From Bacillota bacterium (GTDB taxonomy: Bacteria > Bacillota > Dehalobacteriia > UBA4068): a stretch of 64,000 bases of DNA. Of the stretch, positions 1 to 52,264 are shown piece by piece. The DNA lies in assembly GCA_050949225.1 (NCBI GenBank), contig JBMNFI010000002.1, positions 6,100-70,099 on the forward strand, given 5' to 3'. Position 1 is the stretch's first letter. Every line of letters starts with the position of its first letter. Below the pieces are notes generated by a model. It saw only the letters and a list, made by a program, of their open reading frames with translations. It did no database searches and was not told the DNA's origin. Made by a program: the position numbers and the translations under genes.

Positions 1-3000
1 TTAACGCTTTGTGATGCCACACTGGAGGCTCCCATAGAGTTAAAGCTAACTGTATGAATCCTGGCTGCGGCACCAGGAGAGAATAATTCACCATTACCAT
101 TACCGGAGCTGGCATCAAAAGTAGCATAAGCTACTCCGCCGTTTCCGCCTGTAAAGACTGTGCCGTCTTTTAAGACAGCAATGTTCCAAATGTTATCAAA
201 GCCCGTTTGAGTCCAAGCGGCCTGACCATCAACAACTGTACTATTGTAATGGACGGGCGTGCTCTTTAGAGCAGCTTTATAGTATAGTCCATTACCTGTA
301 GTGCCAAACCATAGTCCATTGTTGGCATCAACTTTTACATAGCGAATTTCTACATCTGTTATAGATTCCAGTCCAGGCAAAAGATCATAGCCCGTATAAA
401 TCGTTCTATTGCCTGTTGGTGAAACATAGTCAACATAGCCGCCTTCAGTAAATAAAGAAGCACCGAAGGTTACGCCTGCCCTTACTACGTAAACACCGCC
501 ATTGGCATCAAGGGAAATACCACGTACCCACTGACCGGCAAAGGTTTGATGGGCAACAGCTTCATCAACGTAAGGTGTTACTTCACCTAAATTACTAATG
601 TAAGCATAGCCGCCTCTATAAACATTATTTGCTGCATCTACTTCATCAGGATAGCATCCGACCCAGGCACCGCCTTTTTGATCTAAGATAACGGTATTGA
701 CAGAGTTTGCCGGAATACCATCAGCCTTATTGTATTGAATCCAGGAATTATAAGCTGGATTATAAACCGAGACCCCTGTGCCATGACCGAACCAAACTTG
801 TCCATCAGAGTCTACTTTAACCTGTTGGACAAAGTCGCTGCCCAAACCATTATTGGTATTCTCCTGATTGAAGATGGTTATTTTATTATCTTTAAGATAA
901 GCAACACCTGCTGCATTATCTTGACTGCCTTGAGCAAACCAAACTCCACCTTCTGCATCCGGACAAATATCAACGATAGTGTTATTTAAAAGAGCAGGAG
1001 TGGATTGCTTGTGATAAGAACTCCAATTACCGTTGGCATCATGATAATAAGCACCGCCCATTAAGGTTCCAATCCACACGCCGCCGTTAGCATCGGGAAC
1101 AACACAACGGACATTACCGGCAAGCGGGATTTCTTGTGAATTCGTTTTCCACATGTTGAAGCTGTATGTGGTGGTACTGGAAGGAGTCACATCTACGCCC
1201 ATAACATTTTTCTGACAGTTCTGCCACTGTTTGGAATCTGTGCCTGCATTAATATTGGCATAGAGACGAATCTCGGCCTTGATCGAAGGATTATTTTTTA
1301 ATTCATCGCTAATATCCTGTCCGTTAACTTTATAAGCAATGAACATATTCTTAGCTGTTACATCGGCAAGATCCATATCCTTATAATCTGCGCCTTTTTC
1401 GCTGTTTTCAAAACCATCCTGGAAATTAAGCGTGATCGTGCCATTAGTGGCGGTGATTCCGGCATCCACCAATAAAGTGCTTAAAGATATACCTTCTACT
1501 GTATCAACTTCACCACTGACAGGATAAGTTTTAGTTTGCGCGGCAAAAGATTTGAGTTCTGTAAGGGTATAATCCTTAACTTTTGTTCCGTTAAGTTTAA
1601 GGGCGAAGGCTGAATCCTCCACAATCGGTGGGGTGACTCCCCCCTCGGTGACTTGGGCAACTACCATGTTTTTCAAACAGTTAAGCCAATCGGTGGCGCC
1701 GTCATTATGGTTACGATAGATTCTTACATAACCATATGTATCACTGCCCTTTTCTTTATCATAAACTAAGTTGCCGTCAACTACATAGGTAACCAGATAG
1801 TTTTTGCTTACCACATCACTGACAGAAATGTTTTCATATGTATCATGAGCATAGCCATCAGAAGTGATCAATTTGATTTTAGCATTCGCATCGGAGTTAT
1901 CAAGTCCTGCATCATACAGCAAGTCATCTAATTTGACACCGACTACACTGTCTGTATATTCAACGCTGGAGGAAAGATAACTATATTGTGATCTTTCCCA
2001 ACCCAGAGCTTTCAACTCATACAGTGAGTAAGATTTTAAGGTATTCCCCTCTTGGTCTTTGATGGCAAAAACATCAGCTACATCTGCTACAGGATAATCA
2101 GAGGGGGTCTCAAAGCCATTTGTGCCGCTACCGGGCAAAGATTCGCCAACAACGATACAGGTGGCATTTTTGATACATTTACCCTGTGATTCATGATAAA
2201 TTAAACGTAACAAGCCCTCCGTATTACCAACACTACCATCATAGCCGGGGTCTGTAGCCTTTTCGACAAAGGGTACACCTTCAACAGCATAGGCTAAAAT
2301 GACATTTCTCTTATCAGAAGAACTATTACCGGCGCCATTTAAAATAGCATCTACAATATTACCGGTAGGATAACCATCTCCGGAAATAACATTAACAGAA
2401 GTCGGAACACTGAGACCTTCCTTAAGTCCTATTTTTTGGAGTAATTTCCAAACATTAACACCTTGGAAGTTTTGATCTGTTACGGCAGTAAATTCACCTG
2501 TTTCAACAATATCATCCATGTCTTCCAAATCCCCTAAGGTCAAGGTTACAGGGGTTTTGATTTCTGAACCGGTAATTCTTAAAACAGGGATATCACGATA
2601 CTGTGAATATGGCTCAAAGTCATGCTTCCAATTTAATTGATCGGCGGCAGTAACTTCGATCTTTGTTACAGACCAAGCACAATTAACAGCATTATTTTCT
2701 GTTTCTGAGGTTTGACCTGTAACGACAGCCAAGGGACCGCCCTGATTTTCATAAGAGGCTTCATAGCCTTCATCAAGATCTGTCGGTACCAAGGGAAGTC
2801 CTTCGCTGACAGATGTTGTCGTATTGAGATTGGCGCCAAAGGCCAGCATCATTTTTAAATTACTGGTACCGGAAACGCTGTTTTGATAGTTGCTCTTACT
2901 TAATTCAGACATCGTGTACGTTTTGCTGGCACCATTATTATAGGTAACAACTATACCACTCGCATTAGCCTTTAAGCCTACCTCATTTTTGAGGAAATTA

Positions 3001-6000
3001 TATAAATCCAAGCCGCGATAACGGATTTCCTTGTCCGCATTACTGCTGCGCAGGTTATAAACGGCAGTGTTTTTATATGAACTCATTGCCTCTAGCTGGC
3101 TCACAGTAAAGCTTTTAGCGTTATTAACGCCATCACCTTCCACTGTCAGAACATTGTCCGCATAGGCATTATAGGGTTCAGACAAATGTGCATAAGAATC
3201 CGGCTCTAAGTTTACTACAATTTTACTTACATTATTTAAAGTTGCGCCGCTAGTATATCCGGTAATTTGCGGCAACACAAATTGCAAGGGGCCACCCTGG
3301 TTTTTGACCGTGAAACCGCTGTCATTCAAAACAGTGTTTGCTGTGTCATAGTTTACATAACCATTAGCATCTTTATTTAATACCAGAGGATAACCGTTTT
3401 TGGCAAAAGCCAGAACTGCCGACAGATTGTTTTTGCCGGTTTCAGAGCAAGAGCCAAGCTCACGCAAGTCATCCAGAGAAACTTCTACAGAGTTAGGTTC
3501 AGCCGCATCATCATAGAAGGTGACTGTACCGCTGTCTCCCGGCAGGCCGATTTTATTACTTAGCAGATACCAAAGGTTAACACCTTCATATAAATCGGCA
3601 TAACCCTTAACCATATAATAATTTTTGGCTTGAGCTTGTTTTTTCTGTGAAAAAGTGACAGCATTGCCATAAATCATTTTTTCCAGATCTTCAATGGTAT
3701 AATTCGTAATATCAGAAGAACCATTTATTTTAACTTCAACAGATAAACTATTATCTTTAAGTGCCTGATAGGCTCCTGAAGCACCTGCGTTATCATAGTG
3801 GGTGGAATAATTCACCACTTCCCCAATAGTAATATAATCCAACAGTTGTGTTTGATGTGAACCATTAGCATCACTATAGTTTTGTTTACCATGAATTAAA
3901 CGCAAAGGACCGCCGGAGTTGCTCAACCCCTTGTTATAGCCGGGGGAGGAACTGTTTACCACATAAGGATATTCATTAATACCATAGGCAATCAAAACCG
4001 GATAACCGGAATCAATGGGGTCCACAGTACTGGGATCAAAGCTTTCATCTATTCCATCAGCGGGATCTTTTTCAAAGAAAAAGAAGTTATCCGGATTGGA
4101 AATTTGCCCCAACTTAAAGTGTTGACTGCCTGTAAAGTTATCGCCGGCATGAGGGATCACGTTCGCATTAGCATTGGAAGTCGCAGCATCAGCTGGCAAA
4201 CCTGCCTTAAGCAGCAAATTATAAAGATCGATACCTCTATATTCATTGACATACCAGTACGAATTATTGGCCAAGCTATATTCGCCGGTGAGAATCAAAT
4301 CATTTAGGCCTTCCAGCTGCTCAACAGTCAGGTTAACCTCACGACCCAAAAGTGAGCCGTTTAGTGTTAAAATATGCTGCGTACTTGAAACATCATTATA
4401 AGGAGCTTTGTCATGTTCATAGCCGGGGGTAGAGTCTTCGGAAACATAAATATAGGCCATGTTGCCAAACTTCTTATTACCTCCACTGCCCTGATCATAA
4501 ACCAGCTTCACACAACCATCAGCATTATCTAAAGCACTGCTATACCAACTTGAGTATATCTCGCTGTCATAGATAAAGGGACGAGCATCAGTACCATTTC
4601 CGGTACCATAAGCAACGATTATCGGCTGATCAGTCGCATCTGCAGCAGCGACTTCAGCATAGGTAAAGGTAGCAATATCCTGACGATTACGGTTTTTGAT
4701 CGTAACCTTAGTACCTGTATCTAAGCGATTTGACTTATTATCCAAAAGATATTTTAATCTTACACCTTCATAAGTAAGCGTAGTAGCATTACCATTGCGG
4801 TAATCTGTATATTCACCACGGAAATAAGGTGCGCTGCCGGAAAGTCTTTCAATTTCCGCTATCGAAGGCATAGCCGAAGCACTGGTCCCCGGACCTTCAA
4901 TAGTCAAGGTTGCACCTGTTATAGCGGGAATATTGTACATATTACCCAACTCTTCATGATTAATGTGTTTATATTCACTGGTGGAAAAATCAATACCGCT
5001 GCCTGCCGTAATTTGGATTTCTGTTATCCCTTTTAACTGACGTGAACCATCAAACAAGGAAAGATAACCATTACCATTAACGGCATTTTTGTTTTCATAA
5101 ACAGCTTGCTTACTATCTGCATTATCACCAATTTCATAAGCCAAAACATACTCTTCTGCATTTGCACGAATATTAGCAACTGTTGTATTGGCAGCACTAT
5201 TATCATACGCATCATAAGAATGGAATTCTACAGTATCGTTATCATCGTAATCAGTTAACAAATCGGCCAGCTGTATTCCTGTATAAGCTTTGGTTGCCGT
5301 ACCTGCTTTGGTATTGTAAGAAGCTGTGCCTTGTACCCTTTCCATCATCAATATTTGAGCTCTTGTGTATTCGGATGTACCGATTTTTATGACCTTGTCC
5401 AGTTCATCACCTAAGCGTATTTTGCTTAAATATTTATTGAAACCGGAATTGTTAGCATCATACCAGGTTGCCTGCCCCATAATATTTTTCAAAACCGTTT
5501 TACCGGTATAATTAGTGGGAGTGCCTAATCCGGCAACAGTATCAGCTGTACTATCTGCCCAAGCAATCAAGGTAGAAACAGCAATAGGATCATTGCCGAC
5601 GGCTGTATTTGCCGGATTACCTGTATTTTGCGGATCACTGGGCGGGACGGAGCCATCATTTTTTGCCCAAACGGCGGTCGATAGATTAGGGAAATAATAT
5701 CTATTGTCATTATTAATAGTATATATCCAACTATCTGTTCCGTCTGCCTTAGGCTCAATAAAACTGATACCTCCATTATAGGCAGGTAGGGAAAAACCCG
5801 TATCGGCCAATAATGTGGACAATTCCACACCGGTAGCCCGTAAAAACCCGGTGAAACAATAAGTATTTAAAGTCGTATAGTCCTGTGTCTTAGCAGTCAT
5901 TGCCTGCAATTCCGACAGAGTGTAGGCCTTTTCATACTTGACATCAGACCCTAGTTCAGCTGCACCTTCCGTTGAGCCCAGACCTGATCCGGTAATCACC

Positions 6001-6125
6001 AAGACCGGCTGTTCTTTGCTCACGTCAGCTTGTGCCACAATCATGCCGCCCACAATCAGCGCAATAATCATGGCCATCACTAATAGCAACTTACCCGCGG
6101 CAAATCTCTTGCCTTTTTTGCTCAT
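1..6125 (-). CDS. Giant secreted multidomain protein, 3'-truncated by the window edge (>2,040 codons): signal peptide, nine tandem SUOX-fold / oxidoreductase molybdopterin-binding-like domains, C-terminal Reg_prop-type beta-propeller repeats
   Basis: Missing from the ORF track because the frame has no stop inside the window. The ATG is the complement of 6123-6125, with AAAGGAGG 8 nt upstream. Hand translation MSKKGKRFAAGKLLLVMAMIIALIVGGMIVAQA/DV... stays open down to position 3. Nine repeats of ~190 aa each carry YTLxEL-type, G(V/I)xLxxLL and GGPLRL-type blocks (e.g. EYRGIDLYNLLLKAGL at ~4200-4250, GGPLRLIHGK at ~3885-3915). From ~1170 to 1 there are repeats such as DANGGVWIGT and NNGLWFGTTGNGLYY. 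Confidence 0.85.
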   Translation of the reverse strand, partial: MSKKGKRFAAGKLLLVMAMIIALIVGGMIVAQADVSKEQPVLVITGSGLGSTEGAAELGSDVKYEKAYTLSELQAMTAKTQDYTTLNTYCFTGFLRATGVELSTLLADTGFSLPAYNGGISFIEPKADGTDSWIYTINNDNRYYFPNLSTAVWAKNDGSVPPSDPQNTGNPANTAVGNDPIAVSTLIAWADSTADTVAGLGTPTNYTGKTVLKNIMGQATWYDANNSGFNKYLSKIRLGDELDKVIKIGTSEYTRAQILMMERVQGTASYNTKAGTATKAYTGIQLADLLTDYDDNDTVEFHSYDAYDNSAANTTVANIRANAEEYVLAYEIGDNADSKQAVYENKNAVNGNGYLSLFDGSRQLKGITEIQITAGSGIDFSTSEYKHINHEELGNMYNIPAITGATLTIEGPGTSASAMPSIAEIERLSGSAPYFRGEYTDYRNGNATTLTYEGVRLKYLLDNKSNRLDTGTKVTIKNRNRQDIATFTYAEVAAADATDQPIIVAYGTGNGTDARPFIYDSEIYSSWYSSALDNADGCVKLVYDQGSGGNKKFGNMAYIYVSEDSTPGYEHDKAPYNDVSSTQHILTLNGSLLGREVNLTVEQLEGLNDLILTGEYSLANNSYWYVNEYRGIDLYNLLLKAGLPADAATSNANANVIPHAGDNFTGSQHFKLGQISNPDNFFFFEKDPADGIDESFDPSTVDPIDSGYPVLIAYGINEYPYVVNSSSPGYNKGLSNSGGPLRLIHGKQNYSDANGSHQTQLLDYITIGEVVNYSTHYDNAGASGAYQALKDNSLSVEVKINGSSDITNYTIEDLEKMIYGNAVTFSQKKQAQAKNYYMVKGYADLYEGVNLWYLLSNKIGLPGDSGTVTFYDDAAEPNSVEVSLDDLRELGSCSETGKNNLSAVLAFAKNGYPLVLNKDANGYVNYDTANTVLNDSGFTVKNQGGPLQFVLPQITGYTSGATLNNVSKIVVNLEPDSYAHLSEPYNAYADNVLTVEGDGVNNAKSFTVSQLEAMSSYKNTAVYNLRSSNADKEIRYRGLDLYNFLKNEVGLKANASGIVVTYNNGASKTYTMSELSKSNYQNSVSGTSNLKMMLAFGANLNTTTSVSEGLPLVPTDLDEGYEASYENQGGPLAVVTGQTSETENNAVNCAWSVTKIEVTAADQLNWKHDFEPYSQYRDIPVLRITGSEIKTPVTLTLGDLEDMDDIVETGEFTAVTDQNFQGVNVWKLLQKIGLKEGLSVPTSVNVISGDGYPTGNIVDAILNGAGNSSSDKRNVILAYAVEGVPFVEKATDPGYDGSVGNTEGLLRLIYHESQGKCIKNATCIVVGESLPGSGTNGFETPSDYPVADVADVFAIKDQEGNTLKSYSLYELKALGWERSQYSYLSSSVEYTDSVVGVKLDDLLYDAGLDNSDANAKIKLITSDGYAHDTYENISVSDVVSKNYLVTYVVDGNLVYDKEKGSDTYGYVRIYRNHNDGATDWLNCLKNMVVAQVTEGGVTPPIVEDSAFALKLNGTKVKDYTLTELKSFAAQTKTYPVSGEVDTVEGISLSTLLVDAGITATNGTITLNFQDGFENSEKGADYKDMDLADVTAKNMFIAYKVNGQDISDELKNNPSIKAEIRLYANINAGTDSKQWQNCQKNVMGVDVTPSSTTTYSFNMWKTNSQEIPLAGNVRCVVPDANGGVWIGTLMGGAYYHDANGNWSSYHKQSTPALLNNTIVDICPDAEGGVWFAQGSQDNAAGVAYLKDNKITIFNQENTNNGLGSDFVQQVKVDSDGQVWFGHGTGVSVYNPAYNSWIQYNKADGIPANSVNTVILDQKGGAWVGCYPDEVDAANNVYRGGYAYISNLGEVTPYVDEAVAHQTFAGQWVRGISLDANGGVYVVRAGVTFGASLFTEGGYVDYVSPTGNRTIYTGYDLLPGLESITDVEIRYVKVDANNGLWFGTTGNGLYYKAALKSTPVHYNSTVVDGQAAWTQTGFDNIWNIAVLKDGTVFTGGNGGVAYATFDASSGNGNGELFSPGAAARIHTVSFNSMGASSVASQSV

Positions 6126-6208
6126 TCTTATGTCCTCCTTTAATAATTTAAAATAAAAAGATTGCAAAATCATTAGTAGAATAGCATACAAAATCAACTT
6201 TATATGCT

Positions 6209-6245
6209 AAAAAAATAAGTACTCATGCAAAGAATAATGAGTACT
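6209..6245 (-). terminator. Intrinsic terminator; probable expression platform of the upstream riboswitch-like leader
   Basis: The minus strand reads AGTACTCAT, a 10-nt loop, ATGAGTACT, then TATTTTTTT. It begins 7 nt after the aptamer 3' end and lies ~85 nt before the giant CDS start. Confidence 0.75.
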
Positions 6246-6252
6246 CCGTTCC

Positions 6253-6370
6253 TACCAAATCCTTTCCAATCACGGGAGGTAAAAATGTTTCCACTTTTAC
6301 CCATCGGCCAAACCACCTTCTGTTTTCACAGGAAGGTAATAAAGCTCGGACAGTATTTAATTTGTCGGTA
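6253..6370 (-). promoter_or_regulatory. Candidate Moco (molybdenum cofactor) riboswitch aptamer, copy 1
   Basis: Minus-strand RNA: TACCGACAAAT-taaatactg-TCCGAGC-[ACCTTC(C)TGT gaaa ACAGAAGGT hairpin]-GCCgatGGGTAaaaGTGGAAACatttttACCTCCCGtgATTGGAAAGG-ATTTGGTA. The blocks UCCGAGC / GGAAAC / CCUCCCG / GGAAAGGA match my recollection of the Moco RNA motif core. A second copy at 17835-17948 keeps these blocks but has different stem sequences. Confidence 0.6.
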
Positions 6371-16846: not shown

Positions 16847-17677
16847 TTATTGCATGACCAACATCGTTAAATAAAAATCTGTATTAGTCGTATTATTTTT
16901 TTTACGGATAGAAACACCAATATTTTTAGCGGAAGGGGAAAGGATGTTAGAATTTCCCTCCCCGGTAATTAATGCATCAAAAAAAGATTGAGCGGAGGGG
17001 AAACCATAGGCAATATTTTCCCCCACATTGCTTAGTCCGTATTGAGCCACCCTTTGCTCATAAGTACCATTAGTGGGCGAGTTATGACTAAAAAAGCCTT
17101 TTTCCGCCATGTCCTTAGAGTGAGCCTGCGCCATCATAATCAGGGTGTTATGATTACTAAAACTTTTTAAACCTTTATCCTTCCGATAATCGTTGACCAG
17201 TTTAATAAACTCCTTTTCTGTATCAGAGAGCGATAAAAGAACACCTGAATCCGTGATCATTACGGTTTTCGTCTTATTATTCCAGTTCACATTGGTTTTA
17301 AGGCTTTCTCCCACAAACCGAATAGGAACCAAGGTGCGCCCTTTAATCACTTTAGCAGGCACATCTAAAGTTATACTCTTGCCATTAACGGTAGTATTTG
17401 TTTTATTGAGGTAAAGGAGAATAATATCGGATCCTTTACTTAGAGTGACTTTTTTGGTTGAGCCCTGGTAATTAACGCAACAGCCAAGATTTTCGGCAAC
17501 AGCACGAACCGGCACCAGCACACGTCCTTGTTCAAGAACGGGCGCAACATCCGGTTGCAAAGTGGTACCGTTGACCACGACTTTTACCTCCTGTGTAGCT
17601 AAAGCAGGAACTATCGTCACAGCCATAATCAGGGCGCAAGCCAATATCACAATTAGGATTTTTTTATTCTTAAACAT
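16847..17677 (-). CDS. Secreted protein with copper-amine-oxidase-N-terminal-like (stalk) repeats and a C-terminal CAP/SCP (YkwD-like) domain
   Basis: Signal peptide MFKNKKILIVILACALIMAV. VVVNGTTLQPDVAPVLEQGRVLVPVRAVAENLG and TVNGKSITLDVPAKVIKGRTLVPIRFVGESL are Cu_amine_oxidN1-type. AQAHSKDMAEKGFFSHNSP is CAP-type. Start trimmed to 17677 (AAGGAGG upstream). Confidence 0.7.
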   Translation of the reverse strand: MFKNKKILIVILACALIMAVTIVPALATQEVKVVVNGTTLQPDVAPVLEQGRVLVPVRAVAENLGCCVNYQGSTKKVTLSKGSDIILLYLNKTNTTVNGKSITLDVPAKVIKGRTLVPIRFVGESLKTNVNWNNKTKTVMITDSGVLLSLSDTEKEFIKLVNDYRKDKGLKSFSNHNTLIMMAQAHSKDMAEKGFFSHNSPTNGTYEQRVAQYGLSNVGENIAYGFPSAQSFFDALITGEGNSNILSPSAKNIGVSIRKKNNTTNTDFYLTMLVMQ

Positions 17678-17793
17678 GGAGACCTCCTTAAAAGATTCTC
17701 TCCAACGGCTAAACAAACTTCATCTGTAGAGATTTATATTCTAGAAATAAATGTCAGATCCTTTATTTACATAAATTTATTAAAATAAAAAAC

Positions 17794-17822
17794 TTGCATT
17801 ATCAAAAGATCTATGCTATGAT
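17794..17822 (+). promoter_or_regulatory. Sigma-A-type promoter candidate for the orphan riboswitch transcript
   Basis: TTGCAT (17794-17799), a 17-nt spacer, then TATGAT (17817-17822). The predicted TSS at ~17829 lies just upstream of the aptamer start at 17835. Confidence 0.5.
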
Positions 17823-17834
17823 TCTAATATATTT

Positions 17835-17948
17835 AGATTTACAAATTGTCCGAAGCTGTTTGACCTAAAGTAAAAACCATGGCAAACAGCCACTGGGTAG
17901 CAGTGGAAACGCTTCTATCTCCCGCATTGGAAAGGATGATATTGATCT
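17835..17948 (+). promoter_or_regulatory. Candidate Moco riboswitch aptamer, copy 2 (no coding gene downstream)
   Basis: AGATTTACAAAT-tg-TCCGAAGC-[GCTGTTTG...CAAACAGC hairpin]-CactGGGTAgcaGTGGAAACgcttctATCTCCCGcATTGGAAAGGatgatATTGATCT. It has the same conserved blocks, in the same order, as copy 1. The helix sequences differ (closing helix AGAT/ATCT here, TACC/GGTA in copy 1). Confidence 0.6.
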
Positions 17949-17955
17949 GTAATTT

Positions 17956-17993
17956 ACAGGTTATTTTCCGATGTGGAAAATAACCTGTTTTTT
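17956..17993 (+). terminator. Intrinsic terminator directly after aptamer copy 2
   Basis: ACAGGTTATTTTCC-gatgt-GGAAAATAACCTGT followed by TTTTTT. It starts 7 nt after the aptamer 3' end, the same spacing as in copy 1. Confidence 0.8.
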
Positions 17994-18049
17994 ATTTCTC
18001 ATAAGTTCTTTTAAAATTTTGCCAGAATAACCGCATAGTTTTACCCTGT

Positions 18050-18102
18050 AGGATAAGCATGAAGCATTGCTTTTAGCAGGAAGCAATGCTTCTGCCTATC
18101 CT
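18050..18102 (+). other. Long near-perfect stem-loop in an ORF-less spacer
   Basis: AGGATAAGCA-t-GAAGCATTGCTT (loop ttagcagg) AAGCAATGCTTC-TGCCTATCCT: 12 perfect bp plus 10 bp with one mismatch and one bulge. There is no flanking U-run on either strand. Confidence 0.6.
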
Positions 18103-18197
18103 TCGTAAAACAATTGCGACTTTTAAATAATTGCCCCATAACTGCACTTTTGTGATTGCTTTATAGACAAAGGTGTAATTCTTTCCTATTTTCCCCG

Positions 18198-18233
18198 CAA
18201 ACAGGAACTTTTAAAAGTTCCTGTTTGTTTTTT
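18198..18233 (+). terminator. Intrinsic terminator closing the ORF-less region
   Basis: CAAACAGGAACTT-ttaa-AAGTTCCTGTTTG (13 bp perfect) followed by TTTTTT. Confidence 0.8.
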
Positions 18234-18253
18234 ACCCTTTCGTAAACGAACTC

Positions 18254-18282
18254 TTGTAGATAGCAATTATTTAAGGTACAAT
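18254..18282 (+). promoter_or_regulatory. Sigma-A-type promoter candidate for the M29 aminopeptidase gene
   Basis: TTGTAG (18254-18259), a 17-nt spacer, then TACAAT (18277-18282). It lies downstream of the 18198-18233 terminator. Confidence 0.45.
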
Positions 18283-18321
18283 AAAAAAGACTGTTCTACT
18301 TTATAAAAAGGAGTCGACACC

Positions 18322-19461
18322 ATGTTCAATTATAAAAACAATCCCGATGAAAATCGTTTTGCTACTCTGGCGAAAAATTTAGTAAGCTATTCCTGTGAAT
18401 TAAAGCCCGGGGATAATGTCCTCTTGGATTTACCTGCCGGAGAGGAGGCCTTTGGGCAAGAATTGATCAAAGCCGTTTATCAGGCAGGAGCGCTGCCTTT
18501 TTTAACTTACAATAACGATGTTTTAACCAAAGAATGGTTAGCGCAAATTAGCGAAAAACAACTGAAACTGGAAGCCCTTTGGCAAGTCAAACGCATGGAA
18601 CAAATGCAGGCATATATTGGCGTAAGGGCCAAAGAAAACATCTATGAGCTTGCCTCTGTTCCGGATGAAAAAAAACGCTTACACAGTTTATTGCTATCAC
18701 ACCCTGTTCATCATGACATTAGGGTTAAAAAAACCAAGTGGGTCATCTTGCGCTACCCCAATCCCTCAATGGCACAAGAGGCAAAGATGTCCACAGAAAA
18801 TTTCCGTGATTTCTATTTTAACGTTTGTAATCTTGACTATGCCAAAATGTCACGTGCGATGGATCCGCTGGTAGGGCTCATGAATAACACTGACCGGGTA
18901 AAAATCTTGGCACCGGGGACCGATCTGCGCTTTTCTATCAAAGGAATTGCTGCCATTAAATGCGACGGTAAACGCAACATTCCCGACGGAGAAGTTTACA
19001 CAGCTCCCGTCAAAGATTCGGTAGAGGGTTTTATCACTTATAACGCTCCCTCTCCGCATGAAGGTCAAGTATACACTAATATTAACTTAGAATTTTCCAA
19101 AGGACAGATCGTAAATGCTGATGCCGGGAACTTAACGGAGTCTTTGCATAAAATCTTAGACACCGATAAAGGCGCGCGTTATATTGGTGAATTTGCCATC
19201 GGCTTAAACCCTTATATTATGCATCCTGCTAATGATATTCTTTTTGATGAAAAGATCCACGGCAGTTTCCATTTCACACCCGGGGCCAGCTATGAGGATG
19301 CTTTTAATGGTAATGAAAGCGCCATACATTGGGATTTGGTGAAAATTTTACGCTCTGATTATGGTGGGGGCGAAATCTACTTTGATGAGCAGCTGATTCA
19401 AAAGGATGGTCAATTCTGTCTACCTGAGCTGGCAGGGTTGAATCCGAAAAACTTATTATAA
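18322..19461 (+). CDS. Aminopeptidase, M29 family (AmpS / aminopeptidase T-like)
   Basis: 379 aa. The N-terminal LAKNLVSYSCELKPGDNVLLD and the C-terminal IGEFAIGLNP...HFTPG pattern are typical of thermophilic-metalloprotease M29 enzymes. AAAAAGGAG RBS. Confidence 0.75.
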   Translation: MFNYKNNPDENRFATLAKNLVSYSCELKPGDNVLLDLPAGEEAFGQELIKAVYQAGALPFLTYNNDVLTKEWLAQISEKQLKLEALWQVKRMEQMQAYIGVRAKENIYELASVPDEKKRLHSLLLSHPVHHDIRVKKTKWVILRYPNPSMAQEAKMSTENFRDFYFNVCNLDYAKMSRAMDPLVGLMNNTDRVKILAPGTDLRFSIKGIAAIKCDGKRNIPDGEVYTAPVKDSVEGFITYNAPSPHEGQVYTNINLEFSKGQIVNADAGNLTESLHKILDTDKGARYIGEFAIGLNPYIMHPANDILFDEKIHGSFHFTPGASYEDAFNGNESAIHWDLVKILRSDYGGGEIYFDEQLIQKDGQFCLPELAGLNPKNLL

Positions 19462-19578: not shown

Positions 19579-19601
19579 GCGAGGACATTTTATGTTCTCG
19601 C
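19579..19601 (-). terminator. Second hairpin just downstream of the rpmE stop
   Basis: GCGAGGACA-ttttа-like loop-TGTTCTCGC (9 bp including one G-U). On the minus strand it is followed by TTGTTGTTTTT. Confidence 0.4.
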
Positions 19602-19618
19602 TTATTAGATCACAATCA

Positions 19619-19819
19619 TTACAAATTATATTTTTTCTTAAATTTGTCCACTCTGCCGCCTTCTTCGACCAGCAGGCGTTTAGAACCGGTATAGTAAGGG
19701 TGACATTGAGAGCAAACCTCTACTTTTATTTCCTCTTTTGTGGAACCGCTTTTAAAACGATTGCCACAGGAGCAAATAACATCAACCTCCTGATATTTCG
19801 GATGGATATCTTTTTTCAT
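19619..19819 (-). CDS. rpmE: 50S ribosomal protein L31 (Zn-ribbon type)
   Basis: [45 protein letters not shown]... is the canonical L31 sequence with a CxC...CxxC motif. Start trimmed to the ATG at 19819 (GAGGTG upstream). Confidence 0.95.
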
Positions 19820-19912
19820 CGTGGTCACCTCATTCCCCTAGAAAGCTTTGGCGAAAATATTCGCCGACCTAATGAATTATAGCACACAAAGTCAAGTATG
19901 TAAAGCATAAGT

Positions 19913-48060: not shown

Positions 48061-49185
48061 TCATTTTTTTCTGCGCAATTGCCGCTTTTTGCTGCCCTTT
48101 TTAACCTTGGATCTCATTTCCTCAGAAAGAGGTTTGGATTCCGGTAAAGGCTTATTGGTTTTAGCAGCGGAAGCACCCTCGTCTATTCTAACTGATCCAT
48201 CGGGAGTGCTGATATATCCTCCGGTTTCATCATCTGAACGCTTAGACCAAGGATGATCCCCATCAAAAATTTCATTTTGAGTTAGCTTCGTTTTAACTTC
48301 TTGGCCTTTATCCTTATTATCCTTGCCCTCCTTGCCTCTTTTAGCTGCCTTTTCTTTGGCTTTTTTTTCTTTTTCCGCTTGCGCTGCAGCAACAGCTCTA
48401 TCCAATTCTGAGAGTTTTCGATGTTCTTTTTGATGTCTCTTTTTAGGATCAAGTAAAGCTTCTTGCTCCAGTTTTTCTTCTGCTAAAAGTTCTTCTTTAG
48501 CACATTTTCTATTAACCATAATCTGCTGCACACCACCGAGAACACTGAAACTAATCCAATAAAGACTTAGTGCGGCCGGGAAATTTCTGGAGATAAAACC
48601 AAAGAAGATCGGCATAAAGTAAAGCATCATCTTTTGACTCGGATTAGAGCTATCAACGGTGGACATTTTTTGCTGTAAAAAAGTGGCAAGACCAACTATA
48701 ACTGGTAAAATCCAACCCGTAGGATCCGGCAAGGAAAGACTGTCTATCCAGAAAAAAGAATAGTTCACTCCTTCGGGAGGAACAAAGCTATAGATAGTAC
48801 GATATAAAGCAATCAAAATAGGCATTTGAATCAACAAAGGCAAACAACCGCTTAAAGGATTTATATCATATTCTCTATAAATACGAAAAGTTTCCTCATT
48901 TTTCTTTTGCGGATCGTTTTCATATTTTTGATTGATCTCCATAATCAAAGGCTGGATCTTCTGCATGCCACGCATTGATCGCATTTGTTTAAGAGTTAAC
49001 GGATAAAGAGCAAGTTTGATAACAATTGTAAAAAGTACGATAGCTAAGGCATAACTGGGTAAGTTAACTATATCAGTAAATTGATATAATATGTTTAAAA
49101 ACCAAGCTAAAGCATCCTTAATAGCATTCCAGCCATTGGATATTCCTAATAAATTGTTAGAGATATTGAAAAAAAATTCCAACAT
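48061..49185 (-). CDS. yidC: Membrane protein insertase YidC with a long basic C-terminal extension
   Basis: 374 aa. The core is ...IVIKLALYPLTLKQMRSMRGMQKIQP...GCLPLLIQMPILIAL.... The last ~150 aa are K/E/R-rich. Confidence 0.9.
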   Translation of the reverse strand: MLEFFFNISNNLLGISNGWNAIKDALAWFLNILYQFTDIVNLPSYALAIVLFTIVIKLALYPLTLKQMRSMRGMQKIQPLIMEINQKYENDPQKKNEETFRIYREYDINPLSGCLPLLIQMPILIALYRTIYSFVPPEGVNYSFFWIDSLSLPDPTGWILPVIVGLATFLQQKMSTVDSSNPSQKMMLYFMPIFFGFISRNFPAALSLYWISFSVLGGVQQIMVNRKCAKEELLAEEKLEQEALLDPKKRHQKEHRKLSELDRAVAAAQAEKEKKAKEKAAKRGKEGKDNKDKGQEVKTKLTQNEIFDGDHPWSKRSDDETGGYISTPDGSVRIDEGASAAKTNKPLPESKPLSEEMRSKVKKGSKKRQLRRKK

Positions 49186-50086: not shown

Positions 50087-50750
50087 TATGAATGCATCCT
50101 CCTTCATTAAAAATAATCATTCTATATTTAGACCTCTTTTAAGACATTCCGTTAGAACAGTCTTTTGATACTTTTTTAGACTGTTTGATAAATTGTACTA
50201 CCAATTATATCTTTCATCTTTATATGAATAAATCTTAAAAAAGTCTAACAGTGAAATTATATCTTAAAAAATAATTTTAGTCAACCAAGACTTGTATTTT
50301 TAGCTTAAACCTACATCAATATATTAGATACAAAAATTTACCTTTGATGCTGCAATTTTTTAGATATTCTCAGATGCTTCGGATATCGTATAGTTAAGAC
50401 TCCTTTAAACCTTTTACCAAGGATTTTTCCTTACAATATTTCAACTAAGAAGAGTTTTTTAACCAATTTTCCTGCAGTTACATTTGAGATAATATTTTCG
50501 CAGTTCTGGAAAGAACTTGCTTAACTTAAACGATGAAGATTCTCAATCCATTACTTGAATTCGTTGGCATATCGAGACCATTTTGAAACACTGTTTAATA
50601 TTATTATTTCCTTTTTCAAGTTTAACCTGTTAAAATTTTTATGTCCATAATTCAAATACTAAAATCAGCTATTATTTTTTATTAGTATTTGATAGCTCTT
50701 ACAGATTGTCGCCAAAAATTTTTCAATATCTCCATCTTCTTTATTGAAAT

Positions 50751-50862
50751 TGTGGATAAATTTTGTTATCATTACTAATACAGCCTGTTTTTATATACTT
50801 ATCCACTGTTTTATTGAAAATGTGTTCGTAAGATTTTTTTACAACTATGTTTTTGTGGATAA
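50751..50862. other. oriC part 1: DnaA-box cluster immediately upstream of dnaA
   Basis: TGTGGATAA 50751-50759 (perfect), TTATCCACT 50799-50807 (1 mismatch) and TGTGGATAA 50854-50862 (perfect), against the consensus TTATCCACA. Confidence 0.8.
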
Positions 50863-50917
50863 CTTTAATATTATACTTTCATTTATTAGCGAATTGGCGG
50901 AAATAGGGGGATTAATA

Positions 50918-52264
50918 GTGGAAAATGTTTGGCTAAAAACACTTGATTTAATAAAAATGGATATTGGTTCTGCACGTTTTGATCGCTGGTTTTGTTCCGT
51001 AGAAAACATAACTCTTCGTAATGGCACCGTTTATATAACTGTACCCGATGAATATGCTCAGGAATATATGCAGCAATCTTTTTATAAAAGTATCAAAAAA
51101 AACCTTAAACTGGTTTCCAACCAAAACTTGGATGTTTATTTTGTAACTAATGACGAAATAATACCGGAAGAAGAAAATAATACGAATAACAAAACTCCTA
51201 AAAATAATATTTTAGAATTTTCTGAAGTGGCAGGTAATGGATTTCAATTCAATCCACGTTATACTTTTGATTCTTTTGTGGTGGGAAATTCTAATCGTTT
51301 TGCACATGCCGCGGCTATGGCTGTTGCAGACAGGCCATCAAGAACCTATAATCCTTTATTTATTTATGGCGGATCAGGATTAGGAAAAACACATTTAATG
51401 CATGCTATTGCACAAAAAATTTTAATACAAAACAAACAAACTAATGTAGTATATATTTCTACAGAAAGTTTTACTAATGAATTTATTTCTATGATTAGAA
51501 CCGGTAAAGCTCACGCTTTTAAAAACCGTTATCGCAATGCCGATGTTTTTTTAATAGATGATATTCAATTTTTAGCCGGTAAAAAAGAAACCCAGGAAGA
51601 ATTTTTTCATACTTTCAACGCTCTTCATGATCTGGAAAAACAAATCATTATTACTTCGGACAGACCACCTAAAGAAATAGAAATGTTGGAAGAAAGATTA
51701 CGCTCCCGTTTTGAATGGGGATTAATCACAGATATTCAGCCCCCAGATGTAGAAACTCGCTGTGCTATTTTACAGAGAAAAGCTCTTTCGGAAAATGCTC
51801 ATTTATCTGACGAAGTAATCTTTTTAATCGCTGATAAAATTCATTCCAATATTCGAGAGCTGGAAGGTGCTTTAAATAAAGTAATGCATTTTGCTTTACT
51901 GAATAATATCGTGGATATTGAGGTTTCTCATGTTTTGGAAGCCTTAAAAGAAATTTTACCTAAAGAATCACAACAAAAACCAACTATTGAATTGATTCAA
52001 AAAATTGTTGCTGATCATTTTGATCTACGTATTAATGATATGAAAAGCAAAAAAAGAGATCGTGCTATTTCCTATCCCCGACAAATTGCTATGTATCTTT
52101 GTCGAGATATATTAGATATTTCTTTCCCTAAAATAGGACATGATTTTGGCGGTAGAGATCATTCTACAGTCATTCATGCTTGTGAAAAAATTGATCAATT
52201 ACTTAATTATGACCTGCAGTTAGAAAAAACTATTAAACAATTAACCGCACAAATAACTAAATAA
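50918..52264 (+). CDS. dnaA: Chromosomal replication initiator protein DnaA
   Basis: GTG start at 50918 (AGGGGG 7 nt upstream) gives (M)ENVWLKTLDLIK.... Walker A GGSGLGKTHL and C-terminal HSTVIHACEKI. The ORF-track TTG at 50744 would make the protein read through the DnaA boxes. Confidence 0.93.
   Translation: MENVWLKTLDLIKMDIGSARFDRWFCSVENITLRNGTVYITVPDEYAQEYMQQSFYKSIKKNLKLVSNQNLDVYFVTNDEIIPEEENNTNNKTPKNNILEFSEVAGNGFQFNPRYTFDSFVVGNSNRFAHAAAMAVADRPSRTYNPLFIYGGSGLGKTHLMHAIAQKILIQNKQTNVVYISTESFTNEFISMIRTGKAHAFKNRYRNADVFLIDDIQFLAGKKETQEEFFHTFNALHDLEKQIIITSDRPPKEIEMLEERLRSRFEWGLITDIQPPDVETRCAILQRKALSENAHLSDEVIFLIADKIHSNIRELEGALNKVMHFALLNNIVDIEVSHVLEALKEILPKESQQKPTIELIQKIVADHFDLRINDMKSKKRDRAISYPRQIAMYLCRDILDISFPKIGHDFGGRDHSTVIHACEKIDQLLNYDLQLEKTIKQLTAQITK

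Follow-up and report, generated by a model that had tools for sequence, protein, structure and literature searches.

Only a few riboswitches are known to gate regulatory RNAs instead of mRNAs. Those given in a 2026 review are limited to the S-adenosylmethionine (SAM)-linked SreA/SreB and the B12-linked EutX/Rli55 (PMC13501541), and in the published literature we found neither a riboswitch-gated regulatory RNA outside the SAM and adenosylcobalamin (AdoCbl) classes nor a small RNA (sRNA) gated by a molybdenum cofactor (Moco) riboswitch. Here we analyze a candidate for such gating in a 64,000-nt stretch of contig JBMNFI010000002.1 from a Bacillota bacterium (hereafter, the window), namely a block at positions 17794-18234 of the plus strand that contains an aptamer of the molybdenum/tungsten cofactor (Moco/Tuco) riboswitch family (Rfam RF01055) and lies between a divergent gene for a CAP-domain protein and the gene for an M29 family aminopeptidase (pepS). 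Comparison of this sequence with related loci suggests that the block probably forms a transcription unit of its own that yields a non-coding RNA (ncRNA) and is gated by the riboswitch; if true, this would extend the gating principle to another cofactor.

The AdoCbl riboswitch-controlled sRNAs EutX of Enterococcus faecalis and Rli55 of Listeria monocytogenes share with the window unit the succession of a promoter, an aptamer, a terminator (ligand-dependent in EutX and Rli55 and predicted to be so in the window), a non-coding extension and a second terminator. In both cases, the long form is expected only without the ligand and the effector part is located in the extension, which for the window is a prediction. 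The differences are that EutX and Rli55 belong to the AdoCbl class and carry tandem hexaloop hairpins of the ANTAR type, whereas the window unit has a Moco/Tuco aptamer and an extension (hereafter, the tail) with one long hairpin followed by the second terminator; no paired hexaloop hairpins of the ANTAR type were seen in this tail. Furthermore, no partner protein or adjacent regulated operon was found for the window unit. The first-pass annotation of the window, which was made from the nucleotide sequence, cited EutX and Rli55 as precedents; the parallel holds for the gating logic, as an analogy, and the window unit is not a member of the EutX/Rli55 RNA family.

Two other groups of RNAs are relevant for comparison. 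SreA and SreB, which are SAM riboswitches of Listeria, resemble the window unit in that a riboswitch transcript may itself be a regulatory RNA, but in that case, the terminated riboswitch pairs with the target and a coding operon is located downstream, whereas the window unit has a conserved read-through tail and no operon. The C-rich sRNAs of Firmicutes, RoxS/RsaE and FsrA, contain an unpaired pyrimidine-rich or C-rich tract before the terminator, comparable to UUUUCCCC in the window; they show neither sequence homology nor an Rfam match with the tail, and a role for this tract is conjecture.

The aptamer, its promoter and its relatives

A cmscan search against Rfam 15 produced only two matches in the 64 kb, both to RF01055: copy 1, at 6243-6363 on the minus strand, and copy 2, the aptamer of the block under study. 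Copy 2 matches the full model (positions 1-135, not truncated) with a score of 59.1 bits (gathering score 36, E-value 1.2e-11), and the alignment includes the conserved core of the family (UCCGAGC, GCC, GGG, the GGAAAC tetraloop, CUCCC and UGGAAAGGA); its P2 combines a GAAA tetraloop with a receptor-like CCUAAA..CAUGG. The family as described by Regulski et al. 2008 (PMC2408646) is likewise characterized by these core blocks, the GAAA tetraloop, the receptor-like bulge in P2 and a terminator as the expression platform. Across five aptamers, compensatory changes occur in 8 pairs; the copy 2 aptamer is intact and under structural selection. Judging by its sequence and predicted fold, copy 2 is an RF01055 member in every structural respect and departs from the family only in the usual linkage to cofactor genes: the described members are located upstream of genes for transport, biosynthesis or cofactor-using proteins, whereas the copy 2 unit has no coding gene. 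The P3 columns of the model are gapped in both copies, which are thus variants without P3. A correlation of such aptamers with the metabolism of the tungsten cofactor has been described (Regulski et al. 2008, PMC2408646), and by analogy, the ligand of a P3-less aptamer like this one may be Tuco and not Moco.

The identification of a second aptamer sharing the blocks of copy 1 in the first-pass annotation was correct, and both copies fit one covariance model. The compensatory differences between the copies, to which that annotation pointed as evidence of a structured RNA family, are real but only re-derive the known RF01055. Moreover, the helices compared are not equivalent parts of P2: in the cmscan alignment, GCUGUUUG/CAAACAGC belongs to the proximal P2 of copy 2, and ACCUUCCUGU/ACAGAAGGU to the distal P2 of copy 1.

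Contigs with an identical aminopeptidase (L001-L007) come from the same organism, and the element is identical in all of them. A scan of one genome per species detected a single close relative, L008 (75% aminopeptidase identity), with the rest at or below about 61%; a protein search and contig look-ups added L088 (79%), L089 and L090 (75%), L091 (68%) and L100-L107 (62-66%). The whole layout is present in L008, including a promoter with TGtTATCAT, an aptamer scoring 67.7 bits, the terminator that follows it (T1), the tail, the second terminator (T2) and the pepS promoter. The contig of L088 begins inside the aptamer, so that the promoter is off the contig; T1, the tail, T2 and the pepS promoter are present. 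In L089 and L090, the promoter is kept (TTGTAT-17-TGcTATCAT), and no RF01055 match was obtained even at E-values up to 10; in the alignment, a deletion accounts for the loss of the T1 5' arm and of most of the aptamer, and ATGCGGAC is what remains of the T1 loop. The core of the tail is intact in this lineage (98.6 bits with R1, our covariance model of this tail core), and so is T2. The tail of the window, which we denote type A, thus occurs in the window and in three related uncultured Bacillota with 75-79% pepS identity.

A different version of the module was found in L100 and L103 (64% identical to the window and 92% to each other), which encode P3-less RF01055 aptamers (61.5 and 60.1 bits, respectively), a long T1, a tail of ~130 nt and T2; the module occupies the same position as in the window, ahead of the pepS promoter. 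This second type of tail differs from type A and is not detected by R1. The only long open reading frame (ORF) in the L103 tail is interrupted by a stop codon and a frameshift in L100, and therefore, this tail is non-coding as well. Conservation of the block, one of the checks suggested in the first-pass annotation, was thus observed in L008, L088 and L089 and, with a different tail, in L100 and L103. In L091, L102 and L107, the holin-CAP-pepS synteny is preserved around a short intergenic region that contains the pepS promoter only, with no module. The remaining loci, L101 and L104-L106, have other neighbors and no aptamer; in two of these, ORF-less regions of 400-620 nt lie upstream of pepS (L104 1879-2500 and L105 2098-2500), with no Rfam match at the gathering threshold. 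A regular-expression search for the aptamer core over L001-L099 revealed no other aptamer at pepS loci. No relative examined has a gene at the position of the tail, and in those without the module, no Moco-related gene was found at this site.

The promoter of the unit, TTGCAT-17-TATGAT, is present as first annotated. It has an extended -10 element, TGcTATGAT (17814-17822), with a predicted transcription start site (TSS) at ~17829; because the -35 hexamer matches the consensus at only 3 of 6 positions, a simple consensus promoter scan did not list it. The TGnTAT(G/C)AT extended -10 and the hexamers are nevertheless kept in L008 and in the aptamer-less L089, and we take it that a single promoter would serve the whole unit.

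T1 and T2, both proposed in the first-pass annotation, were recovered by a terminator scan, which listed 8 terminator-like sites in the region against 2.9 expected. The T1 hairpin (17956-17988) starts 3 nt past the cmscan match and 7-8 nt past the 3' strand of P1 (which ends at ~17948), and counterparts of T1 are present in L008, L088, L100 and L103. In the minimum free energy fold of 17829-17996, the aptamer (P1 = AGAUU/GAUCU) and T1 form side by side; because P1 and T1 can form together, we infer that the switch is an OFF switch. Reading by eye, two segments of the T1 5' arm in the window are complementary to the aptamer region: UUUUCC to the conserved GGAAAG, and ACAGGUU to GAUCUGU, a segment encompassing the 3' strand of P1. 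An antiterminator could form by either of these pairings. A complementary match to GGAAAG, which is universally conserved in the aptamer, is present in the T1 5' arm of every species (UUUCC, UUUUC or CUUUC).

The conserved tail core

Alignment of the four type-A tails (window, L008, L088 and L089) delineates a conserved core at window positions 18014-18105, with a mean pairwise identity of 0.57-0.82, compared to 0.14-0.43 in the 3' part of the tail. The core consists of a 5' segment, block (i), followed by a long hairpin. Block (i) has a mean pairwise identity of 0.74 over 18023-18041, contains the pattern CAGAA-N5-GCAUA-N6/7-YCCU that is invariant in the four species and has no consistent pairing partner; its 18-nt pattern occurs once in the window. 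The 10-11 nt loop of the hairpin, UUUUAGCAGGR, is near-invariant, and UUUUAGCAGG(A/G) is unchanged even where the adjacent stem is altered on both sides, for example, in L088. According to RNAalifold, 10 of the 21 hairpin pairs are changed on both sides in at least one of the four species. Altogether, 94% of the hairpin cells are paired, and none of 500 shuffles did as well in pairing, in the count of covarying pairs or in covariation score; when the partner strand is slid by 1-3 columns, pairing falls to 51-58%. These statistics come from only four related sequences and are supportive rather than proof. The fold of the whole tail has a z-score of -8.7.

The pairing is 94% when the hairpin is read as the plus strand and 76% when it is read as the minus strand (9-17 cells are G·U), and the terminator and promoter scans found no minus-strand terminator or promoter in the region. 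For both these reasons, we assign the tail RNA to the plus strand.

The hairpin is followed by a variable spacer that ends in a pyrimidine-rich tract, UUCUUUCCUAUUUUCCCC (~18179-18196). Tracts rich in C or U are found in the relatives as well, namely CCUCCC in L089, CCCUC in L008 and CCCCACCCCC in L100 and L103, but these are not aligned between species. T2 has a folding energy of -19.3 kcal/mol (z -7.9), and a hairpin with a U tract is present at its position in all six species (window, L008, L088, L089, L100 and L103), although the sequences are unrelated.

In agreement with the first-pass annotation, which described the tail as ORF-less, the ~200 nt between T1 and T2 in the window contain no ORF of at least 30 aa with a ribosome-binding site (RBS), and no small ORF on either strand is conserved in frame, length or sequence among the relatives. 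The core of the tail is a non-coding, structured element under selection.

Within 17600-18400, the tail had no Rfam 15 match at the E-value threshold; the best scores other than those of the aptamer were at most 24 bits, far below the gathering scores, with the sub-threshold matches coming from microRNA and other hairpin models, and the region of L089 likewise yielded nothing for the tail. R1 detected no second copy of the tail core in the window, in ~1 Mb of other Bacillota pepS loci or in L100-L102. A scan of metagenome contigs with the exact pattern of the tail core recovered only L096, which belongs to the same species as L089; the other 7 matches lack the hairpin, and ~9 chance matches are estimated for this pattern. 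The tail core thus appears to be a new small RNA motif that, as far as seen, is restricted to a small clade of uncultured Bacillota.

Several additional features of the two tail types can be noted. Block (i) resembles the T1 3' arm of the same species (GAAUAACC versus AAAUAACC, window 18023-18036 versus 17975-17988); in L008, AACAGC is found in both (1198-1210 and 1153-1165), and the single variable base of block (i) changes together with T1. Because of this resemblance, block (i) could pair with the T1 5' arm. The second tail type (L100 2577-2915, L103 2078-2415) consists of a hairpin with the loop UUUUUGGCAGAACU, followed by CCAAACCCCACCCCC and T2. Its loop is similar both to that of type A and to the beginning of block (i); this likeness (UUUUGSCAGAA) is not significant, given that 99-324 of 500 shuffles score as well.

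Known motifs offered no match for the type-A core. By eye, neither the readings of GCATA/GAATA as sigma E, K, F, G or H elements nor that of block (i) as a ModE box were consistent in the four species. A likeness to the BglG/LicT ribonucleic antiterminator (ACUGC-loop-GCAGG) and a CsrA-type GGA loop were without supporting features, and a CCUGU/GCAGG pseudoknot is possible in three species but not in L089, where the pairing is disrupted. One compensatory change is seen in a closing helix, NGCA/UGCN, which is too short to judge.

Proposed mechanism and competing explanations

We propose the following scheme for the gated ncRNA. When the cofactor is plentiful, the bound aptamer would hold P1 and the GGAAAG segment; T1 would then form, and transcription would end after ~165 nt. 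Under scarcity, the T1 5' arm would instead be paired with GGAAAG and with the 3' strand of P1, blocking T1, and the polymerase would read on to T2, producing an RNA of ~400 nt that includes the tail. The tail would accordingly be a trans-acting regulatory RNA made under cofactor shortage, serving as the signal of that shortage. It might act by either of two routes: the conserved loop and the 5' block could bind a protein or an RNA, or the pyrimidine-rich tract could pair with ribosome-binding sites, as in the C-rich sRNAs of Firmicutes. The L089 lineage, which dropped the sensor and kept the promoter, the tail and T2, lends support to gating: this pattern is expected of a unit that has the tail as its product and the aptamer as the regulator of this product.

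More tentatively, and with somewhat less than even confidence, we envisage a sparing circuit, in which scarcity of the cofactor releases a trans-acting RNA that, via the invariant UUUUAGCAGGR loop and the conserved 5' block, holds back the synthesis of cofactor-dependent enzymes or sequesters a regulator. If this were the case, the two tail types would be diverged effectors under one conserved sensor, and this would be the first case of a sparing circuit at the RNA level for the molybdenum/tungsten cofactor. A gated RNA of this kind would also suggest post-transcriptional matching of molybdo- and tungsto-enzyme synthesis to the cofactor supply in anaerobic Bacillota. The clear covariation and the invariant loop of the tail core invite a search for its partner.

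Several observations weigh against a gated ncRNA. The type-A tail is present in only four species and the other type in two, so the covariation comes from few, related sequences, and there is no demonstrable homology between the two types. The related L091, L102 and L107 have lost the module, which is hence dispensable. No target was found: RNAduplex comparisons of block (i) and the loop with the whole window, and of the whole tail with 66 translation-start regions, yielded nothing beyond background, although with long queries this program produces meaningless loop-rich duplexes, and these scans were uninformative. Finally, a weak sigma-70-like element, TTGCCA-17/18-TAYCCT, overlaps block (i) and reaches the threshold of the promoter scan only in L008.

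This last element leads to the possibility that the tail is an independent sRNA gene, with an internal promoter in block (i) and the TSS at the foot of the hairpin, such that the riboswitch is idle or only adds read-through. The L008 version, TTGCCA-18-TATCCT, is listed at 9/12 in the scan, the predicted start would place a 5' stem-loop at the end of the RNA, and the persistence of the tail in the aptamer-less L089 is compatible with autonomous expression. However, the window version scores 8/12 and is not listed, and the -35 lacks the TTG in L088 (ATTCCA) and L089 (TTATCA); neither an invariant CC at positions 4-5 of the -10 nor a spacer of such high conservation is typical of sigma-70. Moreover, L089 keeps the upstream extended -10 promoter, which would be superfluous, and L100 and L103 show the same order of aptamer, T1, tail and T2 although their tail is of the other type. 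We therefore consider independent transcription of the tail unlikely.

Both tail types are always found directly upstream of pepS, on the same strand, which raises the question of whether the tail is a cis-acting leader of this gene, with transcripts that pass T1 and T2 reaching pepS and the aptamer, perhaps along with a second sensor in the tail, modulating its expression. This appears improbable. T2 is a strong hairpin with a U tract in all six species, and pepS has its own promoter, TTGTAG-17-TACAAT, which was noticed in the first-pass annotation and is kept in every relative examined, both with the module (L008, L088, L089, L100) and without it (L091, L102, L107). The association of the module with pepS is explained by inherited synteny, and we know of no link between M29 aminopeptidases and Moco. 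An annotation pipeline that assigns a riboswitch to the next gene would wrongly place the M29 aminopeptidase in the Moco regulon.

The first-pass annotation offered two readings of the block, a riboswitch-gated ncRNA and the relic of a lost Moco-related gene. For the latter, in which the tail would be the decaying 5' remnant of a Moco/Tuco-related gene, one can cite the best small ORF, whose start codon (ATG or GTG) occupies one alignment column in all four species, right after a Shine-Dalgarno (SD)-like GGA in the loop, and which comprises 13-14 codons in three of them. The encoded peptides are not conserved, the ORF has at least 36 codons in L088, and the SD-to-start spacing is 2-4 nt. A decaying relic would not be expected to keep compensatory changes in the hairpin and an invariant loop across lineages in which pepS is only 75% identical; nor does any relative carry a gene at this site, and T2 is maintained. 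Because of these comparative data (covariation in the core, the conserved loop, the loss of the sensor in L089 and the lack of a gene-bearing relative), we favor the gated ncRNA and consider the relic very improbable. It is similarly hard to believe that function resides in the terminated aptamer RNA of ~165 nt, whether as a trans-acting RNA like SreA/SreB or as a cofactor buffer, and that the tail is a mere spacer: terminated Listeria riboswitches can act in trans (cited in PMC13501541) and the aptamer is well conserved, but this would leave both the selection on the tail core and the retention of the tail after the loss of the aptamer in L089 unexplained.

Features of the locus, copy 1 and the surrounding region

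The features of the block and the adjacent genes are collected in Table 1.

Table 1. Coordinates of the putative transcription unit and of its neighbors in the window
Feature	Position	Strand	Description and source
Promoter of the unit	-35 TTGCAT 17794-17799; -10 TATGAT 17817-17822	+	17-nt spacer; read from sequence
Moco/Tuco riboswitch aptamer, RF01055 (copy 2)	17836-17953	+	cmscan against Rfam 15
T1, intrinsic terminator (expression platform)	17956-17994	+	15-bp stem ACAGGUUAUUUUCC.../...GGAAAAUAACCUGU and UUUUUU; terminator scan
Tail block (i)	18017-18050	+	UUGCCAGAAUAACCGCAUAGUUUUACCCUGUAGG; sequence-conserved, apparently unpaired; from alignments
Tail hairpin	18051-18101	+	21 pairs in two segments, GGAUAAG/CUAUCC and GAAGCAUUGCU/AGCAAUGCUUC; RNAalifold
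Variable spacer	18102-18196	+	sequence and length not conserved, ~35-95 nt in four species
T2, intrinsic terminator	18197-18234	+	14-bp stem (hairpin 18197-18228) and UUUUUU; terminator scan
pepS promoter	18254-18282	+	TTGTAG-17-TACAAT; read from sequence; outside the unit, its downstream boundary
Upstream gene	16847-17716	-	divergent; secreted protein with Cu_amine_oxidN1 and CAP domains
pepS (aminopeptidase gene)	18322-19461	+	Pfam Peptidase_M29

Copy 1 of the aptamer matches the full RF01055 model with 70.1 bits and is a conventional cis-acting riboswitch: the aptamer is followed by a terminator (~6205-6238), an RBS and an ORF for a secreted protein, all on the minus strand. This ORF starts at 6125 and runs off the start of the window (riboswitch and gene together occupy 3-6363), so that the protein is longer than 2041 aa; it matches Oxidored_molyb (62 bits) along with Reg_prop and SGL beta-propeller repeats. 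Copy 1 thus has the gene linkage usual for RF01055, with an Oxidored_molyb protein encoded downstream, whereas copy 2 does not. It is unusual for a riboswitch to control an extracellular protein of such giant size with a molybdopterin domain. Copy 1 is also peculiar in its distal P2 (window 6300-6340, minus strand), which is a plain helix, whereas copy 2 and the family consensus have a tetraloop-receptor bulge (CCUAAG..UAUGG in the consensus); copy 1 retains the GAAA tetraloop all the same, a combination that was reported for only 2 of 176 examples (Regulski et al., PMC2408646).

The window covers the replication-origin region of the chromosome of a spore-forming Bacillota. In the segment 41186-55049, yidC, jag, mnmE, mnmG, rsmG, parA and parB are located on the minus strand, ending at 49185, and are followed by dnaA (50744-52264), dnaN and recF, all on the plus strand; oriC is probably located within 49.2-50.7 kb. 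No genes for molybdate or tungstate transport or for cofactor synthesis were found in the 64-kb window. Downstream of pepS, a 96-aa plus-strand ORF (19592-19882) without a Pfam match overlaps rpmE (ribosomal protein L31; minus strand, 19619-19828), which is annotated as a 66-aa protein in contigs of the same species, and is probably a shadow ORF.

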